The notes under the pieces: model-generated
Database searches by the model: none
The model's input: only the letters and a program-made list of their open reading frames with translations
What the model was told of the DNA's origin: nothing
NCBI GenBank assembly: GCA_016806715.1
Contig: CP060531.1
Coordinates: 705,966-729,965 of the forward strand
Direction of reading: 5' to 3'
From: Thermoplasmatales archaeon
GTDB lineage: Archaea > Thermoplasmatota > Thermoplasmata > Thermoplasmatales > Thermoplasmataceae
DNA length: 24,000 bases
Position numbers and translations under genes: made by a program
Part shown: one piece after another, positions 311 to 20,618 of the stretch
Layout of the letters: each line of letters opens with the position of its first letter
Position numbering within the stretch: position 1 is the first letter of the stretch

Positions 311-1417
311 TCAGCCGGTTGTATTTACTGGCCTGTAGAGGTTGTCACGCTCCACGGGTATCATACCCAACTGCTTTATGCTGTTTATGATTGCCTCTTT
401 TCTGAGGTTCCCGACCATTTTTCCCGTAGCTGGTATAACCTTCTCGTCATAAATGGTACCACCCCAGTCATTTGCGCCAAACAGGATAGCCATCTGTCCC
501 ATCTGAATCCCGTTGGTGAGCCATGAACTCTGTATAACCGGAAGTTCCCTGTTGAATACAATTCTTGAAATTGCTATATTCCTGAGCACGTCCATGCCGC
601 CAGTCCTGTACCTGATTCCGGCTGTTTGCTGCAATTTCGTGTTTCCAGGTTCAAAATTCCATGGGGTAAAGGACATGAAGCCGTGGTACTTCTTTTGAAG
701 TTCCAGGATGGAAAGGAGGTGTTCTGCCTTGTGCCTGCTCTCCTCGACGTGCCCGAACATCATTGTTGATGAAGTCTTTATGCCCAGCTTGTGTGCTTCT
801 TCCATTACTGAAAGCCACTGTTTTCCGCTCCCTGAAGGCCTTCCAAGGATCTTGCGCACCTCATCCGAGAATATCTCTGCCCCGGCGCCAGGGATTGTCT
901 CCAGTCCACTCCTGACAAGAATCTCCAGCAAATCCCCTACACTCATTCTTGACTTTCTTGAGATAAATGAAATTTCCGAAGTGGACAAACCATGGATGCC
1001 AAGCTTCGGGTATGTCCTGTGTATAAGACTGAACATGTCAGTATAATAATCGAGGTCCAGGTCGGGGTTCACGCCCCCCTGTATCAGGAGCTGTGTTATG
1101 CCAAGCTTCTCGTAGAACGGCCGTATCCGGTCCACCACCTGTTCCTTTGTCAGCAGGTAGGAGTCGTCCTCCTTCCCGGTCCTGTAAAAAGCGCAGAAGT
1201 TACACCTCACATTGCAGATGTTGGTGTAGTTGAGTATCATGTTTGAAACAAAAGACACCTTTTTACCGCTGATTTCAGCGGTTATGTTTGCTGCAAGCTT
1301 TCCGAGCATGTTCAGGTCAGCTTCATCATACATGAAAATTATGTCTTCCCTGTCCAGCTCTTCGCCTTTTTTCACCTTGTTGCCAATGTAGTCAAGCGAC
1401 TGCGACGAAGCGATCAT
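311..1417 (-). CDS. Radical SAM enzyme of the futalosine (mqn) menaquinone pathway, MqnE/MqnC family (aminofutalosine synthase or cyclic dehypoxanthinyl-futalosine synthase).
   Basis: 368-aa ORF with an NYTNICNVRCNFCAFY CxxxCxxC cluster, a GG..PDL motif and an overall CofH/MqnC/MqnE-like layout. It is divergent from a paralog and next to an mqnA-like gene. Confidence 0.8.
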   Translation of the reverse strand: MIASSQSLDYIGNKVKKGEELDREDIIFMYDEADLNMLGKLAANITAEISGKKVSFVSNMILNYTNICNVRCNFCAFYRTGKEDDSYLLTKEQVVDRIRPFYEKLGITQLLIQGGVNPDLDLDYYTDMFSLIHRTYPKLGIHGLSTSEISFISRKSRMSVGDLLEILVRSGLETIPGAGAEIFSDEVRKILGRPSGSGKQWLSVMEEAHKLGIKTSSTMMFGHVEESRHKAEHLLSILELQKKYHGFMSFTPWNFEPGNTKLQQTAGIRYRTGGMDVLRNIAISRIVFNRELPVIQSSWLTNGIQMGQMAILFGANDWGGTIYDEKVIPATGKMVGNLRKEAIINSIKQLGMIPVERDNLYRPVNTTG

Positions 1418-1537
1418 GATCCTTTAGCTTAAATCGATTATTAACTGTTTCCACGTTCCGTCTTTACCGGAGCACAAGCCCTGTAACCGAAACAATAAAA
1501 TGCAAATGGTTATTAGTTCAATTCCACTTTTGGAGCC

Positions 1538-2653
1538 ATGGAGCAGATCCAGTCATATCGCTATAAATACTGGGAAGAACGCCTCCGCGATGATCCTCTG
1601 ATCTCAGCCGGGGATGCGAAGTCACTTGTATCAGACCTTTCGCTTTACGATATGATGGCACTGGCCAATGCGCTCACATCCGTACAGGTTGGTGACGTTG
1701 TCTCATATGCAATCTCCTATAACATCAACTACTCAAATTACTGTGCCGCTTCCTGCCCTATCTGCGCCTTTTACGTGCCAATGAAAATTAAGGGGAAAAC
1801 TGACAAGGGGTATGAACTGAGCCTTGAGGACATAAGGAAGGAGATGCAGAAAGCTAAAGCCATAGGCGCCACTGAGATACATATCGTAGGTGGATTCAAC
1901 CCTGACCTTCCGGTAGAGTACTATGAAGATATCTTCCGGCTTGTGAAAACCGAAATGCCTGGAGTTACCCTGAAGGCGTTGACCATACCTGAAATAGATT
2001 TTATAGCGAGGACTCACGGCCTATCGATCAAGGAATTTGTGTCAAGGCTCCGCGATGCAGGCATGGACGCACACACCGGAGGAGGAGCAGAAATTTTCGA
2101 CCCTGAAGTCAGGAAAATAATAACAACAAAGGAGAAGATTTCAGGGGAAAAATGGCTTGAAGATGCAAAGATCATTCACAAAATGGGTATAAGGGGGAAT
2201 TCCACGATGACTTATGGCCATGTGGAAAACTTCGACCAGATAATAGACCACATAGTAAAGTTGCGGGATAACCAGATCCAGGTTCCCGGATTCCTCTCAT
2301 TCATACCTCTAAAGTTCAGTATTGAGAACACACCGCTGCTCAGGATGGGAAAGGTGACTATGCCAGCTTCCGGAGAGACTGACCTTAAGGTGATTGCAAT
2401 GGCCAGGATAATCGCAGGCGCTTACATAAAGAACATCAGCGTATACTGGGTAGCCGTCGGGAAGGAAATTGCACAGATAGCGCTTAATGGAGGGGGAAGC
2501 GACCTGGTCGGCACGGCGTTCAGCGAAAAGATATTCGGCGCCACGGATCGGCGCGACGTCACTACGTCTGAAGAGCTTGATCACCTCATAAGGGAGGCTG
2601 GCAAAATCCCGGCTCAGAGAGACACATTCTACAACATCCTGCGGTACCCATGA
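1538..2653 (+). CDS. Second radical SAM enzyme of the MqnC/MqnE family. I cannot tell by eye which paralog is MqnC and which is MqnE.
   Basis: 371-aa ORF with NYSNYCAASCPICAFY (CxxxCxxC), IVGGFNPDLP and GGGAEIF motifs, colinear with the 311..1417 paralog. Confidence 0.8.
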   Translation: MEQIQSYRYKYWEERLRDDPLISAGDAKSLVSDLSLYDMMALANALTSVQVGDVVSYAISYNINYSNYCAASCPICAFYVPMKIKGKTDKGYELSLEDIRKEMQKAKAIGATEIHIVGGFNPDLPVEYYEDIFRLVKTEMPGVTLKALTIPEIDFIARTHGLSIKEFVSRLRDAGMDAHTGGGAEIFDPEVRKIITTKEKISGEKWLEDAKIIHKMGIRGNSTMTYGHVENFDQIIDHIVKLRDNQIQVPGFLSFIPLKFSIENTPLLRMGKVTMPASGETDLKVIAMARIIAGAYIKNISVYWVAVGKEIAQIALNGGGSDLVGTAFSEKIFGATDRRDVTTSEELDHLIREAGKIPAQRDTFYNILRYP

Positions 2654-2681
2654 CAGGGATTGGGAATAGATCGGATTTTAA

Positions 2682-3422
2682 GTGGTTTCATTGATCGGAC
2701 TTATCAACTTCAGCCACACAGAACCTCTTGCCATGGCCATGGATGACAGAACTTATATCAGGGAACACCCGCGTGACCTGCTTGCCCATGTCCTTGATGG
2801 CAACCTGGAATGTGCCATGATCTCGCTGGTGTCATACCTGGAGAATCGCGACAGGCTTGCCATTATGGAGACGGCAAATATCCACTCGAGGAGGGGAACG
2901 CTATCCACGCTGCTTGTGTCAAAGGGAAAAGGGATTGAGAAGGACATGAACATAGCCATAACCGCGCATACACACACAACATCGTTTTATCTTGAAAGGA
3001 TACTCTCTGCCATGGGCATAACGCATAGAAGCATTACCAGGCAGGGCACCCTTGCAGCTGACCTTCTGTCTGATTCTGATTATGCACTTGTAATAGGGGA
3101 TGAGGCATTGGAGGTGTTCAATGGCGGTTACAGGATACTTATGGACATAGGATATGAATTTTCAAGAATCTTCTTAATGCCGCCGTTGTATGCGGTCACG
3201 GTCTACAGGAAGGACCATGCATACCCCCGGGAGGATCATGATCTCCTTCAGGATGGAGTGGCACAGTCACATCTGTTCAGGGCAAAGGCCGTAGAGAAGA
3301 TGTCCACGACTCTCCACATACCGAGGAGCGTGATGGATTCATATTACAGGTGCATAGAGTATGATTTCAATCCTCTGGTAAGAGGCACTGCAGACTTTGT
3401 CCAAAGAGAGCTTGTATCGTAA
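2682..3422 (+). CDS. mqnA: MqnA-like chorismate dehydratase (menaquinone biosynthesis MqnA/MqnD family).
   Basis: 246-aa ORF with a GTG start. The N-terminus VSLIGLINFSHTEPL resembles the MqnA iGxIxYlNxxPL signature. It lies directly downstream of the mqn radical SAM gene. Confidence 0.6.
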   Translation: MVSLIGLINFSHTEPLAMAMDDRTYIREHPRDLLAHVLDGNLECAMISLVSYLENRDRLAIMETANIHSRRGTLSTLLVSKGKGIEKDMNIAITAHTHTTSFYLERILSAMGITHRSITRQGTLAADLLSDSDYALVIGDEALEVFNGGYRILMDIGYEFSRIFLMPPLYAVTVYRKDHAYPREDHDLLQDGVAQSHLFRAKAVEKMSTTLHIPRSVMDSYYRCIEYDFNPLVRGTADFVQRELVS

Positions 3423-4975: not shown

Positions 4976-5593
4976 TCACTGGATTATCTTCACATCATAG
5001 TTCCTTACTATGTCGTCAAGCGTATCTATTTCAACGTCCCTTGCCAGCCTGGATATGGTATCGAAGTTTTCCCTGAACTTTACACTTCTCTTCGGGTTCC
5101 TGAGTATGGCTGCAGGATGGAACTGCGGGATCACGAATGTTTTCCTGCAATAGTATATGGTGCCTGAAATCTCGGTGACCTTTCCGAAATTATTGTTCAG
5201 GATTTCTCCCAGCGCCTTAATCGCAGAGTTTCCCATGGGCACAACAAGCCTGGGCCTTATTGCATCCATCTCCTCTCTCAGGTACGGAGAGCATGCCCTT
5301 ATCTCTGAGTTCCGGGGGGTTTCACCAACCTTCGGCCTGCATCTGACCGAATTTGTGAGATAAACCTTGATCTTCGGTATCATGGCTGACTCCAGGGTCG
5401 CATCCAGCAGCTTGCCACTCCTTCCTACAAAGGGTTTTCCGGCTTCGTCTTCCTTGGCACCCGGAGCCTCTCCTATGATCATTATTGTGGACTGGGACCC
5501 TCCGAATCCACATACCGGCTTCTTGCGTGAAAACTGCAGATCACATTTCTTGCAGTTCCTGATCTCGTTGCAGAGATCCGGTAGACTTTTCAT
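4976..5593 (-). CDS. udg: Uracil-DNA glycosylase, family 4 (Fe-S type).
   Basis: 205 aa with CKKCDL, the GEAPGAKEDEAGKPFVGRSGKLL motif and further conserved Cys residues and an HP(A/S) motif. Confidence 0.85.
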   Translation of the reverse strand: MKSLPDLCNEIRNCKKCDLQFSRKKPVCGFGGSQSTIMIIGEAPGAKEDEAGKPFVGRSGKLLDATLESAMIPKIKVYLTNSVRCRPKVGETPRNSEIRACSPYLREEMDAIRPRLVVPMGNSAIKALGEILNNNFGKVTEISGTIYYCRKTFVIPQFHPAAILRNPKRSVKFRENFDTISRLARDVEIDTLDDIVRNYDVKIIQ

Positions 5594-5615
5594 TGATGGA
5601 AATAATCCAAGGATA

Positions 5616-6509
5616 TTATAGACTTATTGATTGCGGCTCATTCCCCATGTTTCTCTGGCTTCTGGATGTCAGGTATATTCCAACTGCAACCAGCGCGAAT
5701 CCTCCGTAGGTGAAAATAGTATTTGTCTGCCCGAGGATCAGGAAGCTGAACAGTATGGATAGGGCAGGAACCAGGAAAAAATATGAAGATATGGCTGGGA
5801 CAGAATACTCCCGGTAAAGCTTAAGGTAGATAAAATAAGCCACTGCGGTGCCAAGCACCCCGATGTACAGGCTGATCAGCAGGAACTGCCATGTTATCCC
5901 CGAAAGGCTGAAACTTTCAGTCGCAAAAGCCCACACAGTTATGAATGGCAGCGCGTAAATATACTGTATGGCATTAACGGTTGCAGGGTGTGTCGTGTGT
6001 ATGTATTTCTTATAGAATATTGTTCCACCTGCCCAGCTAAGAGCGGATAGCAGCAGGAGTATGAGGCCTATTCCCGGGCTTATGGACAGTTGATCCACAA
6101 ATATCAGGACAATACCCGCGAAGCCAAGAACTGAACCTGCTACTGTAAGGGGCCCGATCCTGTCTGCAAGGAAAATTGAGGAGAATATTATGGAGAATAT
6201 GGGGTATGTGTAAACAAGGATGGACGAAATTGAGGCACTCTCCGTGCCCTCCCCTATGAACCAGAGTCCCATGAACAGGGTTATGTTAAGTGCAGAGAGT
6301 ATGACCATCTTCAGGTTTGTAACAAGATCCCTGGGAAATTTCAACCCGCCCTTGATCAGGAAGAGCGAGAATATGGCAGCAAACATGACCCTGAACAGCA
6401 GGAGCATTAGCGGAGGCTCGTACAGGAGGGCAAATTTTACCATTATGTAGTTCAATCCCCAGAATGACGACATTGCCATGAATCCCGCAACATCTATTGA
6501 CTTAGGCAC
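5616..6509 (-). CDS. EamA/DMT-superfamily transporter.
   Basis: 297 aa with about 10 predicted TM helices and a duplicated EamA-like architecture. Confidence 0.8.
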   Translation of the reverse strand: MPKSIDVAGFMAMSSFWGLNYIMVKFALLYEPPLMLLLFRVMFAAIFSLFLIKGGLKFPRDLVTNLKMVILSALNITLFMGLWFIGEGTESASISSILVYTYPIFSIIFSSIFLADRIGPLTVAGSVLGFAGIVLIFVDQLSISPGIGLILLLLSALSWAGGTIFYKKYIHTTHPATVNAIQYIYALPFITVWAFATESFSLSGITWQFLLISLYIGVLGTAVAYFIYLKLYREYSVPAISSYFFLVPALSILFSFLILGQTNTIFTYGGFALVAVGIYLTSRSQRNMGNEPQSISL

Positions 6510-6868
6510 CGCTACTGATTTAAGCAGGATATATCATAATTATGTTTGTGAGTGCAGAAGCCTATTGTAAACTCGGCTGCCTGAGATTGCCCGTAACCGT
6601 ACTTTTTGCTGGGGAAAAAATTGAAGCAGAAATCCATCTCTTCCTCGAAGATCGTGGCTGCAGTAAGAGATTTAACATTCACTACCTTCTATATTTATGA
6701 TGACAATTTTAGCATCCGTGACCTGTATTCCGGCACAGCCACGCAGAGCTGGCCGTGGAACCATCTCGTGAGCACCACTGCCAATATTCCTCCGGGTTAT
6801 TAAGGCAAGATAGCTCCATGCGAATCAACAGAGTTTTAAATCCCACGGCATTAATGGATTGATCAAAA

Positions 6869-8272
6869 TTGCTATTCCAGGACAAGGTCTCGATTCTTGA
6901 GTATTTTAACAAGCATGGGCTTCTGGTTTCACCACAGGCCCTGGAAATAATACTCAGCAGGAGCCTTGGAGACATGATACCCAGGCTGGTATCTGAAGAC
7001 GTGGTCAGCACTGGCTACGTCGATGAGAAAACGGTCAAGAGCATACTTATCGGAAAGACCAAGACTTCCCCGGAGGATTTTGAGGTTTACATCCCGGACA
7101 TCAAGGTAAGGAGCTCCGTAGATGATTTCCGGAATCACTTCGTAAGCAAGTACACCAAACTCAAGAAGATCATAGCCACATCCAGCTCTATGCGTGGAAG
7201 CACTGACATCCGGAGCGTGAAGAAGACCGCAGGGGAGGTGAAGTTCGTCGGGATGGTTTCCACGGTTGAAAAAACGAAGAACGGACACAAGAGGATAGTA
7301 GTCGAGGATCTTGAGGACAGCGTCAGTGTGATCCTTATGAAAAGCAAGAACATGGCTGATGAGCTCATACTGCAGGATGAAGTAATAGGCATTGTGGGCA
7401 ATACATCAAACGGCCAGGGGGAGACAGTGATTTTTGCTAACGAGATCATCCGGCCGGACATACCGTTCAGGATGATTGATGAAACCCGGAGAGAACCGGT
7501 ATTCCTGGCCTCGCTGTCAGACATACATGTGGGCAGCAAGACGTTCAGGAAAGACGATTTCATGCATATGATATCATGGATCAAGAGCTCGGATGAAGAA
7601 GCACAGAACCTCAAGTACCTGATCCTGAGCGGTGACGTGGTTGACGGTATAGGCGTATACCCTTCCCAGGAGGAAGACCTGGAAATAATGAATCCATTTG
7701 AGCAGTATGCTAAACTCGGGGAATATCTGTCTCAAATTCCTGAGGACATAAGGGTGTATGTAATGCCGGGAAATCATGATAGCGTTAGACTGGCCGAGCC
7801 ACAGCCGGTATTTTCTCAGAAGATCGCACAATCACTGGGAAGGAATGTTACACTTATTCCAAACCCGTACACCCTGCACCTCGAAGGAAGGAACGTCCTG
7901 GTATACCACGGGATGTCCCTGAACGACATGGTTGAGCTGGTTCCCGGTGCAAATTTTGAGACCATAGGCAAGGCGATTGAGGAGATACTCAAGAGGAGGC
8001 ACCTTGCACCGAGATATGGAGGAAAAACACCGCTGATACCGAGCCCGGTCGACTACCACGTAATTGAGGAAGTGCCTGACATTTTCATAACCGGCCATGT
8101 GCATTCCCATGCACTGGGAAACTACCGCGGCGTCAGGTACGTGAATTCATCCACATGGCAATCACAGACAGAATACCAGAGGATGATGAACTTCAGCCCC
8201 AATCCTTCCAGACTGACGATGTTCGACCTGAACTCGAAGACCACAATAGTGAAGAAATTCGGAGTGGACTAG
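6869..8272 (+). CDS. polB: DNA polymerase II (PolD) small subunit DP1.
   Basis: 467 aa with a TTG start. It has calcineurin-like phosphoesterase motifs (LSDIHVGS, SGDVVDG, GNHD, GHVH) after an OB-fold region and a typical DP1 N-terminus (GLLVSPQALEIIL). Confidence 0.9.
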   Translation: MLFQDKVSILEYFNKHGLLVSPQALEIILSRSLGDMIPRLVSEDVVSTGYVDEKTVKSILIGKTKTSPEDFEVYIPDIKVRSSVDDFRNHFVSKYTKLKKIIATSSSMRGSTDIRSVKKTAGEVKFVGMVSTVEKTKNGHKRIVVEDLEDSVSVILMKSKNMADELILQDEVIGIVGNTSNGQGETVIFANEIIRPDIPFRMIDETRREPVFLASLSDIHVGSKTFRKDDFMHMISWIKSSDEEAQNLKYLILSGDVVDGIGVYPSQEEDLEIMNPFEQYAKLGEYLSQIPEDIRVYVMPGNHDSVRLAEPQPVFSQKIAQSLGRNVTLIPNPYTLHLEGRNVLVYHGMSLNDMVELVPGANFETIGKAIEEILKRRHLAPRYGGKTPLIPSPVDYHVIEEVPDIFITGHVHSHALGNYRGVRYVNSSTWQSQTEYQRMMNFSPNPSRLTMFDLNSKTTIVKKFGVD

Positions 8273-8370
8273 TACTTAACCACCCCACCTACGCCCGTAT
8301 GACCCAAGATTTGGAAGTTCGCATTTTTGGCAGCCAAGCGACTGGGCTATAAACACAATCAGGTGCTGGA

Positions 8371-8712
8371 TCAGAGTGTTCTTTTTATAATCTCTTCAAT
8401 TTCACTTTGGAAAGAGCTGAGGAAATCGGTCATTGCCTCGTCTTTTATTGACTTCGGGGCAGTTGCAACTCCGATCTTTGCTGTGACCTTTGCCATTTTT
8501 GCCATGGAGTCGTACTCCTTGAGCCTGGCTTCCATGTATTCTTTCAGCACTTCCATTATTTCCAGCCTCAGGCCCTCGCTCTCATTGATCTTCTTCTTGA
8601 TGTATTCCTTGATAATGTCTTTCATTATTTCACGTATTGCCTCGAAGTAAAGCTCTTCGGATGGCATTGTGCTCATGAAACGCTTTATGTACAAGTCCAG
8701 ATTTTCCTTCAC
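8371..8712 (-). CDS. Hypothetical helical, Lys/Glu-rich protein.
   Basis: 113-aa ORF with natural-looking helical composition. The overlapping plus-strand ORF 8327..8650 is Ser/Ile-rich and looks like an antisense artefact. Confidence 0.5.
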   Translation of the reverse strand: MKENLDLYIKRFMSTMPSEELYFEAIREIMKDIIKEYIKKKINESEGLRLEIMEVLKEYMEARLKEYDSMAKMAKVTAKIGVATAPKSIKDEAMTDFLSSFQSEIEEIIKRTL

Positions 8713-8824
8713 GACACATTTAGATAGATATGGTAAATAAACTTTGGCTGGAAATTGAAAAAATAGTTATAAATAATCATAGGCAATATGGAGACACGCT
8801 TTATCTCGAATAAAGCATGCCATG

Positions 8825-8832
8825 TATAAAAT
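8825..8832 (+). promoter_or_regulatory. Candidate archaeal TATA box for the rpl41e-tRNA-Trp unit.
   Basis: TATAAAAT ends 26 nt upstream of ATG 8858. That spacing would give a leaderless or near-leaderless transcript. Confidence 0.35.
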
Positions 8833-8857
8833 TCAAGTGATATAAACTTGGGGTGAA

Positions 8858-8968
8858 ATGTTGAAGAGAAGTTCAAGGGACTGGAAGAAACGCGGCAATA
8901 TGCGCTGGAAATGGCGCAAGAAAAGAATTAGAAGATTAAAGAGAGCAAGAAAAGCAAACAAGATGTAA
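8858..8968 (+). CDS. rpl41e: 50S ribosomal protein L41e (36 aa).
   Basis: Hand translation gives [36 protein letters not shown]. The MRWKWxKKRxRRLKR core is the L41e signature. The ORF is below the length cutoff of the ORF track. Confidence 0.75.
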
Positions 8969-9109
8969 GGGCGCATGGGGTAGTCAGGTATCCTAACGGG
9001 CTCCAGTCAGGGTGTGATTAGCTATGGGTCAACTGATCTTATGATGAGTGACTGGAACTATGAACCGGGAAGAGACCCGTAGATCTGGGTTCAAATCCCA
9101 GTGCGCCCA
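8969..9109 (+). tRNA. tRNA-Trp (anticodon CCA) with a 68-nt intron at the canonical 37/38 position. CCA is not encoded.
   Basis: Acceptor stem GGGCGCA/TGCGCCC with discriminator A. Anticodon stem ACGGG(8996-9000)/CCCGT(9076-9080). Anticodon loop CUCCAG|A with CCA at 9003-9005. T-arm CTGGG-TTCAAAT-CCCAG. Exons 8969-9006 and 9075-9109 give a 73-nt mature tRNA. Confidence 0.9.
9007..9074 (+). ncRNA. tRNA-Trp intron encoding a box C/D guide RNA with two 12-nt guides.
   Basis: Box C is GTGATTA at 9014-9020 (one mismatch to RUGAUGA). The D' guide is 9021-9032 and box D' is CTGA at 9033-9036. Box C' is ATGATGA at 9041-9047. The D guide is 9048-9059 and box D is ATGA at 9060-9063 (variant of CUGA). 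A terminal stem pairs GGT 9011-9013 with ACC 9064-9066. Confidence 0.7.
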
Positions 9110-9367
9110 TTTGGTCTGAACGGCTCCCGCCGGAATACCGACCAGAGAGTTCATTTTATCCTCGCTGCTAAAGAGTTTCTTGACAGTGAGTTCCTTTTTA
9201 GCCAATGTGAATTCACGCATAGGCATGAGACTCATCTATTATCTACCTGTTGTTCAAACGGCAACGCGCGATATTTGATCGAAATAAACCAAACCGATTT
9301 TACTGAGGAGTCAAATTGTTATTCCGAAAGATAATTGCAAAAGGAACATACGGAAGTGTGTAAGCCA

Positions 9368-9390
9368 TTACACATTTATAAAATGTGTAA
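9368..9390. promoter_or_regulatory. Perfect 10-nt-arm palindrome centred on a TATA-like core; candidate promoter/operator of the downstream ATPase gene.
   Basis: The sequence is TTACACATTT-ATA-AAATGTGTAA. Additional TGTGTAA/ATGTAA copies lie at about 9356 and about 9412. A second AT-rich box, AATAATTAATATAT (9401-9414), lies 20 nt before ATG 9434. Confidence 0.4.
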
Positions 9391-9433
9391 TACAATACGA
9401 ATAATTAATATATGTAATGTGATACATATAATA

Positions 9434-10726
9434 ATGGAAAAGGCATTAATATTGAAGATCCTTGATTCATGGAATTTTTGGAGTCACGACCTGGATACAG
9501 GAATAAGCCGTAACAATTATGTAAACACCATACTAAGATTCATTGACGAATCCCAGATACCGATTGTTATCGAAACCGGGATCAGACGAGCTGGTAAGTC
9601 CTTTATCGCCAAGCAAACAGCAAGGGCGTTAATTGACAAAAACCTGCACAAGACCCAGGTCTTGATCATTAACCTCGAGGATGAACGTCTGATTGATAGG
9701 AACTATGAAACTCTCCTGGAAATGTACGAAGCTTACAAGACTAATATCAACCCGAGCGAGAAGACGATAATAATTCTCGATGAGGCCCAGGAAATAGATG
9801 GATGGGAACGATTTGTTAGAGGACTCACTGAAAGAGAAGAAGCAAAGTTCCTGATTACAGGTTCGTCATCGAAGTTGCTCGATTCTGAGTATTCAACATT
9901 GCTTTCCGGACGGCAGGTAGTGGTATACGTTCATCCTCTTGACCTTCTGGAATACAGGGAATTTACGAAGCGTGAGGGAAGCTTAAGCCATATCTTAAAG
10001 GAAGGGGGATTTCCTGCGGTCGCCCTTTCCAAGAGCAAGAATGATATCGTGTATAGCTACTTCAATACCATAATCCTGAAGGATGTTATCCAGAGATATC
10101 GGGTCAGGAAACAGGACGACCTCATTCACATCGCAAAATTTTATGTCACTAGTGTGGGCTCAAGGATTACATTTAACAGAGTGGCAAAATTCCTCGCTCT
10201 TCCGGTTAAGACTGCCTACAATCTTTCCAAGTATCTGGAAAACGCTTATCTTGTTTTTTTTGTGGAAAGGTTCTCATTTTCCAGCAAATCACAGAATAAC
10301 AGCCCCAAGAAAGTCTATTCCATAGACAACTCTTTTCCATCGCTTATAGGACTGAATCATGTTGAGGTCCTTGGAAGGCTCCTTGAGAACCTAATCGCAA
10401 GCACCCTCTACAAGATATCAAGACAAACGACTGATTTTCGATTTTTTTACTGGCACGAGAATGGGAAGGAAGTGGATTTTGTAGTGAAACGTAAAACGAA
10501 ATATGAGGCGTTCCAGGTCGCATATTCAGTCAAGGATGATAAAACAAAAACCAGGGAAATTTCGGCTTTGCTTGACTGTGCTGCGTATCTCAATCTGGAC
10601 AGTTGTCAAATAATAACCATGGAATATGCTAATGAGGAGGTGGTAGGAGGCATCACCATTACTTATGTGCCAGCCTCAGAATGGATAGCCGACATGCTGA
10701 ACAATTACGTTGCAGGATCTGCTTAA
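9434..10726 (+). CDS. AAA+ ATPase of the COG1373 type (AAA_14 N-domain plus a DUF4143 C-domain).
   Basis: Walker A-like GIRRAGKS, Walker B IIILDEAQEI, then ITGSSSKLL..LSGR and a C-terminal FFYWHENGKEVDFVV DUF4143-like block. I prefer the start at Met34 of track ORF 9335..10726 (MEKALILKIL), because the upstream 33 codons cover the AT-rich palindromic promoter region. Confidence 0.85.
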   Translation: MEKALILKILDSWNFWSHDLDTGISRNNYVNTILRFIDESQIPIVIETGIRRAGKSFIAKQTARALIDKNLHKTQVLIINLEDERLIDRNYETLLEMYEAYKTNINPSEKTIIILDEAQEIDGWERFVRGLTEREEAKFLITGSSSKLLDSEYSTLLSGRQVVVYVHPLDLLEYREFTKREGSLSHILKEGGFPAVALSKSKNDIVYSYFNTIILKDVIQRYRVRKQDDLIHIAKFYVTSVGSRITFNRVAKFLALPVKTAYNLSKYLENAYLVFFVERFSFSSKSQNNSPKKVYSIDNSFPSLIGLNHVEVLGRLLENLIASTLYKISRQTTDFRFFYWHENGKEVDFVVKRKTKYEAFQVAYSVKDDKTKTREISALLDCAAYLNLDSCQIITMEYANEEVVGGITITYVPASEWIADMLNNYVAGSA

Positions 10727-11462
10727 TATGATGTACATAACTGACATCATTCAGCGTTAAACCTATCAACCCAGCTAGAGTCCACCATTAACCAAACGCG
10801 TCATAACTGGAAAATTAAGGTAATCAGTACTGGCTATCCAACAATGCTCGCAGAACTTCTTTCGTCTTGATTAAATGTACCGCTTTTTCTTTCAGTATGA
10901 ACGGATATGTCAATAAGTCTAGCTACGCTTGGTATAACTACCAAACACCTTAATAATTGAAGAAACGTACTATTCGTACTTTTACTATGCGTATTTGGAC
11001 TGGCTTTATCTGAAATGTGCAAAATCTCTTCTTAATATATTGCGTAATGTCAAAATTGCAAAATAATCAGATTACTTTGGAATCATAAAGAATCATCAAG
11101 TTATAGATAATTTGCTGGTCCTGAATTAAAAATAAGTCCACACACTATAATTTTGCGTTTCCGAAATACTATAGTTAGATAGGTATGATAAGGAATACTT
11201 ATAATAATCATTGAACGCTCTTTGCGATTTTACAGTGCTTTCACTACACAATCGAGGTGAGCATGAACGTCAAACTTGTGTATATTGCACATAAGAATCC
11301 CTTGAACGCTGTCTTGTGCAATAAAATTGGGCATATAACGATGGCTCATTGAATAAGAAAACACTCTTCCACTCTGCGAAAAATTTATTAGTTAAAAACT
11401 CAATACAATTTTAGGGGTTAATACCTCATATCAGGAATTTTCCCTTTTTGTAGTGAGCCAAA

Positions 11463-14259: not shown

Positions 14260-14621
14260 TGCCAGAGTGGAAGGATCACTACCAGTAACGGAGGTCAGCT
14301 GAATGCCATTTTCTGGGAACCATAATACCTGGTTCTTCTGTTAAGGTATTTCTGTAAGATTCTGTGTGATTATTGATGGTTTCCTCATCTTAACCAGAGA
14401 AACCGTACTGTCTATGAAATCAATAATCCATCGGATCTGCTTCTTCGGAGTACTAAAATATCCTCAAAGTGTTCGATATATACCTGTTATTTCATAAAAC
14501 CTGAGACGCCGAATAGTTGATTCATTCCTAATTTCATTGAACAGGACTGCGAATACATTTTGTTTTTGAATTGCCCTGAGAATTATTATTTATATGTAGA
14601 AGTCGTAGGAAAAGAGTAGAA

Positions 14622-14915
14622 ATGCTGAAACAGGGGTTATACGAACAGGTAATTAACCAGATTATTAGAAAAGAACTGGATTCTGATATACCACCAGTTT
14701 CCTCCATAGTTCCTATTGACCGGAAAGAAATCCCGAAGATATTATCTACATACCTTGCAGATATCATTGAAAAGGGCCTTGAAAGTGCCATGAATAAGGG
14801 TATCAGCCCTGCAACTCAGATAGGCTTGATCAATTCAACCATAAAGTCACTGTCAGATAAATTCGGAGATCCAGAACTGGCTGGGCTTTCTGTTGCAACT
14901 ATCCCTTTGCGCTGA
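14622..14915 (+). pseudogene. Orphaned N-terminal leader fragment of a PLD-nuclease/helicase/DUF3427-type protein (truncated gene remnant), or a small standalone ORF.
   Basis: MLKQGLYEQVINQIIRKEL....STYLADIIEKGL....QIGLINSTIKSL matches, from memory, the GLYEQLI...L / YL...I.KGL / QI.L.N.II..L N-terminus of large DUF3427-containing helicases. The ORF stops after 97 codons and is flanked by 362 and 377 bp without ORFs. Confidence 0.4.
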
Positions 14916-15292
14916 CCGCCCCACTATTTGAGGCGTTTTAATTATCTCAGGATAGTATCCCAAATCTTGGGTAATTCTAGAAGCCAATTCCAGGATCATT
15001 AGAGAAATGTTCCATATGAGGTATCCTTTATAAATGCACAAGCCTTGGGACACTATGTTTGACCTAATCCTACGTATTCTTGAAGAAACAAAGTTATTGA
15101 GTTTATTATAGGAACAAGAGTAATCTAATCACTCATCCAGTGGTAATATTTCTGATCCGCATATTCCTAGACCGTTTCTAATCAGCTTTGAGGCCATGAT
15201 AGCTTTGGTATTGCTGCAATATTTGTTAACTCAGTTCCAAAATAAATGTATGTTACCTTAACTGATTTCGGAGGTTTTCAGTGATACCCGTT

Positions 15293-16525
15293 TTACACAA
15301 CTATCTTCAGAGATACTGTATATTCATTTCCGTTTAGGTTAAACCGGATCAAGTTTTCATTGAGTTCTAACACCACTCTGCTCCCATAGTCAAACTCCTT
15401 ATGGTGATTAGGACACAGCACCAAAATATTCTTTGGCTCCTCTTTGCCACCCAAGCTTTTAGCCTTTATGTGCGCCCCCTCAATGTATAATCCCCCATTT
15501 TCCTTCTTAATAGAAACCCCACAAATCTGACATTTGAAACCTCTATTTTGTTTAATAAGAGAGATTGCCACTAGATCCCTTTTTAGACGCTTCCCATTAA
15601 TAACTATATACTCGTCCGGATTAGGACTCAGGGACCTGAGGCGATTTGCTACATCATCAGGAGATAAACCCTTCACGATTTTTTCGGTTCTCTCCTCTTC
15701 TTCAAAACTTGTTTGAGTTAACACTTCCAACTTAACATCAGTTGGCACTTTTTTAACTATGTTTGAGGAGAATGTTTGATTTGGAGGCCAAGGGCTTATT
15801 TGCCAATTAAAAAATATTCGATCGTCGGTATTAGTTACGGTAGAAAGGTACTTCAAAGTCCCTGCATAATAATATTTTTTATCCCCTTCAACTCTAATAA
15901 ATAGGTAAATTAGATCTCCTCGATTATTAGATTCTTTAAATCTTTGGATTTGGGGGTCACTTCTTTTCTGATGTTTTTGTGGGTGCCAACGAAGGATACC
16001 ACTTTCGTCAACCCACTCTTCACCAATGCCTTGGCTTCCCAGAGTCACGAAAAACAAAGTATCACCTTCTGAGGTTTTAACTGAAATTATGCCCGACTGT
16101 CTCCATGTTGGGGTCATTTCAGATTCTCCAAAAATCCTCAGCAAATCCTCTCTGCTATACAGATTATAAAGAACTAGGGAAGATCCAACAGTTCTCTGCA
16201 AATCAACCCTATACACTTTGAAAGACCCGTTAACACTTTTAATCCCCCAAATACCATGAATTGCAGGGTTGTAAAGTGTAACTGAAGCTCTCCCAAGCTT
16301 GAAAAGGAAATCATATTTCTCGCGAGGTTCCACAACCTCGCGTTGGTTGAAAAAATAATTTATTCTACCTAGGGAATTAACAGATGCAGAGTTAATAGTA
16401 TCTATCATGGACTGTTTATTGTCGTGTTCATAATGAGTTAATGCGTATTGTATAATTTCTTTATTAGTAGCAGTACCACCACTTGACATTACTGCTTCTT
16501 TGACCATTTCATACAAAGTTGGCAT
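15293..16525 (-). CDS. Three-domain nuclease: N-terminal winged-helix-like domain, central DUF3427-like domain and C-terminal HNH (HNH_2-type) endonuclease.
   Basis: The HNH region has C332xxC335, EGAHIKA (His352), N366, and LCPNHHKEFD (Cys371, His374/375), at nt about 15386-15538. The central region YSREDLLRIFG...DTLFFVTL...ILRWHPQ...DLIYLFIRVEGDKKYYYAGTLKY (nt about 15791-16174) follows the DUF3427 pattern. The N-terminus MPTLYEMVKEAV..GGTATNKEIIQYAL resembles Mrr_N-like wHTH modules. The gene is clearly AT-richer than the housekeeping genes. Confidence 0.75.
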   Translation of the reverse strand: MPTLYEMVKEAVMSSGGTATNKEIIQYALTHYEHDNKQSMIDTINSASVNSLGRINYFFNQREVVEPREKYDFLFKLGRASVTLYNPAIHGIWGIKSVNGSFKVYRVDLQRTVGSSLVLYNLYSREDLLRIFGESEMTPTWRQSGIISVKTSEGDTLFFVTLGSQGIGEEWVDESGILRWHPQKHQKRSDPQIQRFKESNNRGDLIYLFIRVEGDKKYYYAGTLKYLSTVTNTDDRIFFNWQISPWPPNQTFSSNIVKKVPTDVKLEVLTQTSFEEEERTEKIVKGLSPDDVANRLRSLSPNPDEYIVINGKRLKRDLVAISLIKQNRGFKCQICGVSIKKENGGLYIEGAHIKAKSLGGKEEPKNILVLCPNHHKEFDYGSRVVLELNENLIRFNLNGNEYTVSLKIVV

Positions 16526-17046
16526 ATTTAGTGTACGTTTTTATAAATAAAAACTTAAGCCATACAATTTACTCTTCTCAATCATCTGACCAATTGTCTT
16601 ATTCTTCATTTTAAGATGACTCATTCCATTTTTCTCAACACAATTCTCCCATCCTTAACGGAAATTCAACATCACCTAAGTTCTCGTAACCCTTGCATCT
16701 CCTCACTTCTGGAAGCATATACTCTACATCATCATTCATATCCATCCTTCCACATTTGTCCTCATTCCGAGACCGGCCACACCCTCATAATATCTCTTAT
16801 GGGCTTTTCTGCAATGAGGTTGCACATACTTTCCTAACCTCTTATGCCCGGCGAAATAGGAATATTCCTCTGGACAGGTTCCATCATTCATTGGTTCACG
16901 TCTGCTTTCTCTTTCCAACAGACTCTTCAATTTTACAGAGTTCCGCAAATTGCTACATTTGTTGAACTTTTGATGAGGCAAAAGTATTAATCTAAGTTAT
17001 GATATGAAGTTCAACACGGTTCCATGGGTATTAGACGGGGTAGATA

Positions 17047-19099: not shown

Positions 19100-19676
19100 G
19101 CGTTCTGCTGATATATTAGAAAGTGAGTTAATAAAGATTCAATGAGGGGAACCATTACCGCTTGACATCAGAGCGAAATGCGTGAAACTATTGAGGTATC
19201 ACTATGCAACACCGCAAACCTGCTCTTAATTCTCCCTGGCCTGCTTACGGGGAATCTAGCAAGAAAGCTCCGACCTTCAGGTAGGAGATGAATTGCGAAC
19301 ATTAACGCAATCATTATTAGGGATACAGCGAATCTGGAATCAAGCACGAAACTACTACGGGCAATGTTCCCGGAGGAAGTCGTTGCAGAAAAATCCCCAT
19401 GAACCGATTGCTCCGAAAGGACTTCGCCATGAGGTTGGGAATGTTTCCATTCCGCAGTCTTTGCAGAGGAATGGATCTGAAACATATCCCGATTGCATGC
19501 AGACAGGGATGCATGCAAAGGGAACACTAATATCCCTAAAGAGGCAACGTTCAGGACTGGAGCGACCCCAGAACTCTGTAATAGGTTCCCGCAAAACTGT
19601 CTAGACCGTGAGGAATGAAAGCAAAAACGAAGAAAAAGCGAGAACCTCCGAAGCTTCAGCGAGGAGAGTATGTCAG
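19100..19676. other. ORF-poor, hairpin-rich 577-bp region; candidate structured ncRNA, long leader or decayed gene.
   Basis: Only short, mutually overlapping ORFs with unnatural composition in several frames. Perfect hairpins are GGAATG(19438-19443)/CATTCC(19448-19453), with a third GGAATG at 19468-19473, and TTGCATGCA(19493-19501)/TGCATGCAA(19510-19518). Base composition is closer to coding DNA than to the AT-rich spacers elsewhere in the window. Confidence 0.3.
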
Positions 19677-20618
19677 ATGGTCTTCCAAACAACAGAATCG
19701 ATTAAAGCACATATTTATGATACGCAGTGTTTATCAGTTGTGCTTAAGCCTTTAGTGAAATGGGCTGGGGGGAAGAGGCAGTTGCTGCCTTCAATACTGA
19801 AGATGCTTCCCGAAAGCTTTGAAACATACATTGAACCCTTTGCCGGAGGCTGTGCGGTTCTTGTTGGGATCTACAACATTGGTAAGCTAAAGCATGCCAT
19901 TATTTCAGACCTTAATGAAGAGCTCATCAACCTTTATGCAGTTGTCAAGAATGACCCGGAGGCACTCATAGCTGAGATTGACGGCATGTCTTTCACCAAC
20001 GACAGTAAGTCATACTATCTGTGCAGAGATAGGTTCAATGCCTTGCTTGGGCAGTCCAGTTTCAGTAAGGAACGGGCGGCATTGTTCCTGTACCTTAACC
20101 GCCATGGATATAATGGACTCTGGAGAGTAAATGGATCCGGAAAATTCAACGTACCATTTGGGAGATACAGCCATCCGCTTATGCCTGCCCCGGATCATAT
20201 CAGGGAATTCAGCGCAATGCTCTCCTCTGTCGACATATACAGCGGGGACTTCGCCGGAACATGCAGGATCGCATCGGGCGGAGACCTGGTTTACCTGGAC
20301 CCCCCGTATTTTCCCGTATCCATTACGTCAAACTTTACAGGATATTCAAGAGGTGGATTTTCCATGGAACAACAGAGCCGCCTGAGAACAGAGTGTGAAG
20401 ATATGGACAGAAGGGGAGTGAAGTTCATTTTCAATAATTCTTACACTCCCGAAATCTCGAGGCTTTATGATAGATTTTTCACGTACAGGGTGCCGTCTAC
20501 AAGGATGATAAACCGCAATTCAGACGGGCGCATGGGACACTATGACCTGCTTGGATCAAATTTTGCTGTAGCCGGAACAGACAGCATGATCGTGGATGAC
20601 TCACCGTATCCCAACTGA
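19677..20618 (+). CDS. dam: Dam-family (D12 class, alpha-group) N6-adenine DNA methyltransferase.
   Basis: KPLVKWAGGKRQLLP, EPFAGGCAV (FxGxG SAM motif), NGLWRVN and DPPY (nt 20298-20309). I prefer Met24 of track ORF 19608..20618 as the start. Confidence 0.9.
   Translation: MVFQTTESIKAHIYDTQCLSVVLKPLVKWAGGKRQLLPSILKMLPESFETYIEPFAGGCAVLVGIYNIGKLKHAIISDLNEELINLYAVVKNDPEALIAEIDGMSFTNDSKSYYLCRDRFNALLGQSSFSKERAALFLYLNRHGYNGLWRVNGSGKFNVPFGRYSHPLMPAPDHIREFSAMLSSVDIYSGDFAGTCRIASGGDLVYLDPPYFPVSITSNFTGYSRGGFSMEQQSRLRTECEDMDRRGVKFIFNNSYTPEISRLYDRFFTYRVPSTRMINRNSDGRMGHYDLLGSNFAVAGTDSMIVDDSPYPN

Follow-up and report, generated by a model that had tools for sequence, protein, structure and literature searches.

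An AT-rich gene on the minus strand of a 24,000-nucleotide stretch of a Thermoplasmatales archaeon genome (the whole stretch is called the window here) encodes a protein of 410 amino acids that ends in an HNH nuclease module. The question raised by this locus is whether such a protein senses modified DNA and cuts it on its own. A first-pass annotation, made from the sequence alone, had proposed a compact sensor-nuclease of Type IV character carried by a mobile, defence-type gene, and the core of that proposal holds: the gene probably encodes a Type IV (modification-dependent) restriction endonuclease that acts alone and without ATP. Three of the features by which this class is judged have been found, namely an intact nuclease, a reader domain of the modified-base type and no adjoining methyltransferase. 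The protein is a rare recombination of three domains in which both the sensor and the cutter are of already known types, and it opens no new class of defence system.

The central reader domain

The central part of the protein belongs to DUF3427 (PF11907), as had been proposed. It scores 35.4 bits over residues 112-230, Pfam calls being judged against the gathering cut-offs (27.7 bits for DUF3427, 21 for HNH_2 and 23 for DUF7669). The match covers positions 122-247 of the 280 in the profile, that is, only its C-terminal half, which corresponds to the SRA-fold target-recognition domain (TRD) of SauUSI. In the first-pass annotation DUF3427 was described as an unexplained module and was set against the SRA-type readers of other enzymes. 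However, it was proposed as early as 2011 as the TRD by which the Type IV enzyme SauUSI recognises 5-methylcytosine (5mC) and 5-hydroxymethylcytosine (5hmC) (PMC3141236, PMC3874153). The crystal structure of SauUSI has since revealed an SRA fold in residues 806-953, in which M829, Y831, F841, I842, D858 and W868 line a modelled pocket for base flipping (PMC7913695). The contrast with SRA readers thus falls away, because DUF3427 is itself SRA-like.

In the window protein the SRA likeness is seen at the fold level only, as SAD_SRA (PF02182) gave no Pfam match at E-values up to 1. A profile of residues 108-262 built from 47 sequences matches the TRD of SauUSI (7clg_A, residues 799-924) with an E-value of 2.3e-8 and has no other meaningful match. 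The reader and the N-terminal domain were modelled separately with AlphaFold2, and the reader model reached a pLDDT of 83 and a pTM of 0.83. Its comparison with known folds by Foldseek, a check recommended with the original proposal, gave SauUSI (7clg_A) as the best match in the PDB (E 1.7e-6, TM 0.61), followed by the SRA domains of SUVH5 (E 5.5e-5, 17% identity) and SUVH6; the SUVH5 structures include complexes with methylated or hydroxymethylated DNA. Further neighbours were the SRA-like readers of AspBHI, LpnPI, ScoMcrA and AbaSI.

When the pocket of SauUSI is transferred to the window protein by profile alignment, D858 corresponds to E170, W868 to W180, F841 to F159, I842 to V160, M829 to I147 and Y831 to V149. 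E170, W180, F159, V160 and I147 vary little or not at all within the family, the mapping itself being a sequence alignment that is uncertain near a gap. The nearest relatives of the reader are McaZI-type proteins with the arrangement DUF3427-DUF3883, which make up 56 of the 118 representatives of related proteins and are 30-39% identical to it. Enzymes of this type (McaZI, BwiMMI and EfaL9I) bind DNA containing 5mC or 5hmC and restrict T4gt, with poor cutting in vitro (PMC6765204).

The HNH nuclease module

The zinc-stabilised HNH module at the C-terminus is intact. HNH_2 (PF13391) is matched with 32.4 bits over residues 332-381, and the zinc ligands (C332, C335, C371 and H374) and catalytic residues (H352, N366 and H375) stand at the positions originally named for them. 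None of the seven varies among the four full-length orthologues or across 33 homologous HNH modules, so that the lack of conservation named beforehand as a ground for rejecting the proposal is not observed. The best sequence match in the PDB is TagI (6ghs_A, E 2.8e-8, residues 316-386), followed by EcoKMcrA (6ghc, E 3.6e-5), so that both of the nearest HNH domains by sequence come from modification-dependent (5mC-dependent) enzymes. In PADLOC a Type IV model is matched by the HNH part only; the same part alone matches the phosphorothioate-dependent ScoMcrA family of NCBIfam, far below the cut-off.

This module, which extends from about residue 260-296 to residue 410, is a widely shared cassette. 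Hundreds of proteins from Bacteroidota, Thermoplasmata, Nitrosopumilus, Patescibacteria and others, 227, 263 or 340 amino acids long, contain it at 45-57% identity, and their N-termini match neither the reader profile nor the N-terminal profile of the window protein. Two Thermoplasmata genomes (loci L006 and L008) have the module, at about 50% identity, behind a short N-terminal domain. In these loci the HNH gene (7650-8402 in L006 and 7653-8402 in L008) lies divergently beside a gene encoding a DNA methyltransferase-like protein of 438 amino acids with an NPPY motif (5714-7030 and 5579-6895, respectively). Such pairs look like classical restriction-modification (R-M) systems built on the same cutter.

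The window protein is identical to QRF75260.1 of NCBI (Thermoplasmatales archaeon), which was deposited as a 'putative HKD family nuclease'. A motif scan of the 410 amino acids found neither the HxK(x)4D (HKD) motif nor a Walker A motif, and no PLDc or helicase domain of Pfam was matched. The deposited name is misleading because the protein does not have the motif that it refers to, and it has been rejected in favour of HNH. Most likely it is an annotation transferred from SauUSI-like proteins, which share just the DUF3427 region.

The N-terminal domain

An exhaustive phmmer search with residues 1-260 against 1.84 billion representatives separated two independent modules, 1-108 and 115-250. 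The first of them had been described as a winged helix of the Mrr_N type. The fold is indeed winged-helix-like, but the family is probably DUF7669 (PF24706): Mrr_N (PF14338) gave no match in the window protein at E-values up to 1, and it occurs in only 2 of the 118 related representatives, elsewhere in the protein. The window protein itself scores below the threshold for DUF7669 (14.9 bits against 23, residues 6-79). The orthologues P0002-P0004 carry precomputed DUF7669 matches (E at most 1e-5 in P0004), and the profile of this domain also matches proteins with strong DUF7669 assignments (about E 1e-42 or better). Within the related-protein set, strong DUF7669 matches are found in 12 representatives.

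The AlphaFold2 model of the domain (pLDDT 94.9) is made up of helices and a single short strand, with a beta meander of four strands behind them. Its profile gave a weak match in the PDB to the globular domain of histone H5, a winged helix (E 0.02), and the best Foldseek matches of the model were the winged helices of forkhead, Rok, STIV F93 and Z-alpha proteins, none of them significant (E at least 0.07).

DUF7669 has been found in tandem pairs, together with Hypoth_Ymh and in front of C-termini that appear PD-(D/E)XK-like by eye, and in P0126 it is joined directly to an HNH_2 domain of a subtype different from that of the window protein. Besides, P0127, P0128 and P0139 consist of DUF7669, a middle domain of about 190 amino acids (motifs NFWS...FFFKT...IAGYA), without Pfam or PDB sequence matches, and an HNH_2 domain of the P0126 subtype. 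The order of modules parallels that of the window protein, but the one in the middle is another, which suggests that sensors can be exchanged. From these arrangements DUF7669 looks like an accessory head by which restriction-type nucleases bind DNA; it is comparable with Mrr_N, although no membership of the Mrr_N family could be detected. No mention of DUF7669 was found in the literature searched, and its role as an accessory domain of restriction-type nucleases would be the first functional context for it.

Distribution and gene contexts

The full DUF7669-DUF3427-HNH architecture is very rare. Among 5.8 billion proteins it occurs in four clusters at the 90% identity level (100, 89, 74 and 53% identical to the window protein), which collapse to one representative at 50% identity. 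No additional relative of full length turned up in GTDB (185,579 species genomes), JGI (241 million metagenome records) or IMG/VR, which gave HNH-module relatives or nothing, and plasmid searches with tblastn returned single-domain matches only. When the HNH region of the window protein was used in phmmer, P0197 and P0224 were the only other proteins with an HNH domain beside DUF3427 among the 150 best representatives. The view that the three-domain combination is undescribed is supported as far as the exact combination is concerned. It does not extend to the pairing of reader and nuclease: Jablonska et al. noted in 2017 that DUF3427 tends to co-occur with His-Me fingers of the HNH_2 group, suggesting a role in restriction (PMC5714182), and Lutz et al. 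screened in 2019 for readers ('PUA or DUF3427') in fusion with nucleases ('HNH or PD-(D/E)XK') (PMC6765204).

The homologues stand in different surroundings. The one with 89% identity (L001) is syntenic with the window, with 94.7% nucleotide identity. In L003 (74% identity) the gene follows a MazE-like gene, and in L002 (53% identity) it follows a cluster of four genes with weak matches to BilC (JAB) and BilD (E1). This cluster (340-3339 of L002) encodes proteins of 95, 176, 161 (JAB) and 530 (ThiF/E1) amino acids, the Bil matches being those of PADLOC, and it resembles a Bil-type operon for defence by ubiquitin-like conjugation. No methyltransferase adjoins the gene in the window, L001, L002 or L003, and neither a methyltransferase nor an NTPase was called anywhere in L002 or L003, the L002 sequence ending some 110 bp beyond the HNH gene.

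Of the 70 codons of the HNH gene that differ between the window and L001, 44 change the amino acid, with the greatest density in the HNH module. The share is 24-43% in the flanking genes for AlkZ, isochorismatase and Ta1207, and one codon of eight in the thiamine-binding gene. All this points to an accessory gene that is patchy, mobile and fast-evolving. A syntenic housekeeping gene, which would have spoken against the original proposal, is not what was found, because the homologues are rare and lie in three different contexts, one of them being that of the window.

Proposed mechanism and significance

From these data a mode of action may be proposed. The DUF3427 domain would take up a cytosine with a modification (5mC, 5hmC or a derivative) in its hydrophobic pocket by flipping the base out of incoming DNA, the winged-helix-like DUF7669 domain may add DNA affinity or context, and the zinc HNH would cut close by, probably in the form of a dimer like that of TagI. 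The DNA of the host would escape because the modification is absent from the recognised context.

Should it prove active, the protein would be the first DUF3427-HNH enzyme to be characterised and would join the few Type IV enzymes from Thermoplasmata-type archaea, being small, ATP-independent and modification-dependent. With a reader from the SauUSI clade it could be useful for epigenetic mapping and, having no translocase to complicate matters, it could reveal how base selection works in the DUF3427 branch of SRA-like domains.

Points against a stand-alone Type IV enzyme and alternative explanations

Several observations weigh against this interpretation, and the first of them concern the reader. 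Compared with the consensus of the McaZI-type domains, the window family has a deletion of three residues that removes a conserved loop containing a histidine, it has TV in the place of a conserved HD, and V149 stands where SauUSI has the methyl-contacting Y831. Since the reader departs from the McaZI consensus in these ways, its ligand could differ from 5mC and 5hmC. The same sensor-nuclease might then recognise a hypermodified base of an archaeal virus, N4-methylcytosine, N6-methyladenine (6mA), a lesion, a sequence or a structure, and it may nick the DNA instead of cutting both strands. The low identity to the McaZI-type readers that have been tested fits this explanation, as does ScoA3V, a PUA-like-HNH enzyme that is a 6mA-stimulated nickase (PMC6765204). 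It is nevertheless rather unlikely: the stacking tryptophan and the base-contacting acidic residue are conserved, every significant structural neighbour is a reader of modified cytosine, and a 6mA reader directed to GATC would be toxic to its own host beside the resident Dam-like methyltransferase, assuming an active enzyme. There is just an outside chance that a re-tooled SRA-like pocket (with the loop deletion, the HD to TV change and no tyrosine at the methyl contact) reads a modification other than 5mC and 5hmC, for example a hypermodified base of an archaeal virus, and that DUF7669 is an unrecognised, widely reused DNA-binding module of restriction-type nucleases.

The second group of observations is peculiar to the allele of the window. 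S182P is found in this copy alone, serine being present in 45 of the 46 aligned DUF3427 domains, and P236R and V237I are shared with P0002. As judged from the sequence, these substitutions could alter or weaken the function. Codon 182 (15980-15982 of the window), which specifies serine in the three closest relatives, lies two residues past the invariant tryptophan that is predicted to stack on the flipped base. Changes at such near-invariant positions, the high share of amino-acid-changing differences from the closest relative and the extreme rarity of the architecture are also what would be expected of a passenger gene that is decaying or inactive, or of a selfish HNH gene of the homing type, either of them without a current role in defence. 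This is the least probable of the explanations considered, as all four clusters, the one at 53% identity included, keep the frame of 410 codons intact, with about 200 invariant alignment columns that include every catalytic and zinc residue; moreover, a promoter-like element is present and nothing points to an intron, intein or homing context.

The third group of observations concerns autonomy. The fusions of DUF3427 to PD-(D/E)XK nucleases had hardly any nuclease activity in vitro, or none, and possibly depend on an NTPase partner (PMC6765204), so that DNA binding by the reader is no guarantee of autonomous cleavage. Besides, the fact that related archaea carry the same HNH module adjoining an NPPY methyltransferase (L006 and L008) means that this type of HNH is by itself no proof of Type IV behaviour; the inference of a Type IV enzyme rests on the reader domain. 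Related to this, the window protein could be one component of a multi-gene system, either classical R-M or a two-component defence, that needs the neighbouring open reading frame (ORF) of 97 amino acids, the Dam-like methyltransferase or an NTPase. The 97-amino-acid ORF is retained free of stops in the syntenic L001, and methyltransferases and NTPases are frequent neighbours of DUF3427 fusions (PMC6765204, PMC5714182). However, such dependence is improbable. The 97-amino-acid ORF has no homologues elsewhere among the 5.8 billion proteins, where its sole match was itself. The Dam-like gene is 3 kb distant, with two housekeeping genes of normal GC, Ta1207 and DUF72, in between, and is absent from L002 and L003, whose upstream neighbours (the Bil-like operon and the MazE-like gene, respectively) offer no such partner either.

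The main uncertainties concern the ligand, full activity of the S182P allele and the ability of the protein to cut without a partner, as other DUF3427 fusions cut poorly in vitro. A stand-alone Type IV nuclease is still the reading that is preferred here.

Gene structure and locus

The features of the locus are listed in Table 1. The HNH gene starts with ATG and has 410 uninterrupted codons with zero internal stops, and an in-frame TAA upstream of the ATG rules out a longer start such as the one called for the homologue P0002. The A/T-rich element in front of it (TTTTTATTTATAAAAA) looks like a putative archaeal TATA box or promoter for a leaderless mRNA. Although the linker is listed as a segment of its own, its C-terminal part is a portion of the conserved module ahead of the HNH, since the HNH-module homologues align from about residue 255-296 onward.

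Table 1. Features of the HNH gene and its surroundings, with positions in the window.
Feature	Position	Strand	Basis or remark
Complete gene, 410 amino acids, stop included	15293..16525	(-)	ORF listing; identical NCBI protein; three full-length homologue clusters
Residues 1-110, N-terminal DUF7669 domain, winged-helix-like plus four-stranded beta meander, putative accessory DNA-binding module	16196..16525	(-)	Pfam in homologues, AlphaFold2 model, Foldseek
Residues 112-250, DUF3427 domain, SRA-like fold, predicted modified-cytosine reader	15776..16192	(-)	Pfam, SauUSI TRD profile match, AlphaFold2, Foldseek
Residues 251-300, acidic linker (about 50 amino acids)	15626..15775	(-)	Sequence
Residues 301-410 plus stop, zinc-stabilised beta-beta-alpha-Me HNH_2 nuclease	15293..15625	(-)	Pfam HNH_2, PDB sequence matches, invariant residues
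A/T-rich TATA-box-like element TTTTTATTTATAAAAA	16538..16553	(-)	Read from sequence; 13-28 nt upstream of ATG
Putative 97-amino-acid ORF	14622-14915	(+)	ORF listing
D12-class (Dam-like) N6-adenine methyltransferase	19608-20618	(+)	3.1 kb from HNH gene

The gene is AT-richer than its neighbours, as had been noticed at first sight, but the contrast with guaB is smaller than the estimate of about 30% against about 55% GC: the values are 38.3% and 50.1%, and a difference as large as the estimated one appears only at third codon positions (GC3, 34.5% against 57.8%). The whole window has 44.8% GC. The gene belongs to a low-GC islet (14260-17046) with 37-41% GC throughout, flanked by genes of 43-47%, and neither tRNA genes nor convincing flanking repeats were found to mark this islet.

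The 97-amino-acid ORF had been taken for the remnant of a DUF3427-helicase gene. This idea has been dropped, as searches of Pfam, PADLOC and plasmids gave no match, the protein collections returned only the ORF itself, and the PDB matches were spurious ones to designed helical repeats. Its syntenic copy in L001 has 93% amino acid identity, and 7 of the 14 differing codons change the amino acid.

The Dam methylase announced at about 3 kb was confirmed as a D12-class N6-adenine methyltransferase. It has no adjacent endonuclease gene, PADLOC matches it to Type II and orphan methyltransferase models, and the DUF998 ORF that follows downstream begins at 20596, within the 3' end of the methyltransferase gene. 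Another gene of the window (9335-10726, plus strand) encodes an ATPase of 463 amino acids with AAA_14 and DUF4143 domains that matches the PADLOC candidate defence family PDC-S01 with 318 bits. It lies about 4.5 kb from the HNH gene in a second low-GC stretch (8273-11462, 34-43% GC), which may be another accessory or defence islet. At the beginning of the window (311-3422) there are two divergent radical-SAM genes of the CofH/MqnC type and then a VitK2_biosynth (futalosine-pathway) gene, all part of core metabolism and unrelated to the HNH gene.

Comparison with known enzymes

The enzymes most similar in design are the SRA-HNH nucleases TagI, ScoA3IV/Sco5333 and TbiR51I, which are also single polypeptides without an ATPase in which an N-terminal, base-flipping SRA-fold reader is followed by a C-terminal zinc HNH. 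Homology of the nuclease is seen with TagI, whose HNH is the best PDB sequence match of the window HNH, and a mechanism of the TagI type, in which a dimer recognises 5mC and cleaves close to it (PMC6212794), is expected for the window protein too. Unlike these enzymes, the window protein has a reader of the DUF3427 clade that fails the SAD_SRA sequence test of Pfam, and it adds the N-terminal DUF7669 domain and the acidic linker of about 50 residues. The zinc site is of the CCCH type, whereas that of McrA is CCCC.

The reader, on the other hand, is shared with SauUSI (7CLG), a Type IV enzyme of S. aureus that recognises S5mCNGS and S5hmCNGS and has a homologous TRD, which is also the top structural match. 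SauUSI is a protein of 953 amino acids with a phospholipase D-type (PLD, HKD) nuclease, an SF2 (superfamily 2) ATPase/translocase and a coupler, whereas the window protein has neither HKD nor Walker A motifs and carries an HNH instead.

McaZI, BwiMMI and EfaL9I are likewise compact fusions of DUF3427 to a nuclease without an ATPase, and their readers are the nearest in sequence. Their nuclease is a PD-(D/E)XK domain (DUF3883/NOV_C); the window protein has no NOV_C match and HNH_2 takes its place. Besides, the McaZI group has no DUF7669, and its readers have neither the loop deletion nor the HD to TV change of the window family.

Finally, other DUF3427-HNH fusions exist, for which a role in restriction was proposed by Jablonska et al. 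in 2017 from neighbourhood evidence (PMC5714182). P0197 and P0224 have a different HNH subtype (PF01844, McrA-like CxxC...CxxCH) and no DUF7669. Together with WP_052015257 and WP_052747245, reported in the same work, they follow the same logic as the window protein, in which a DUF3427 reader is joined to an HNH nuclease.

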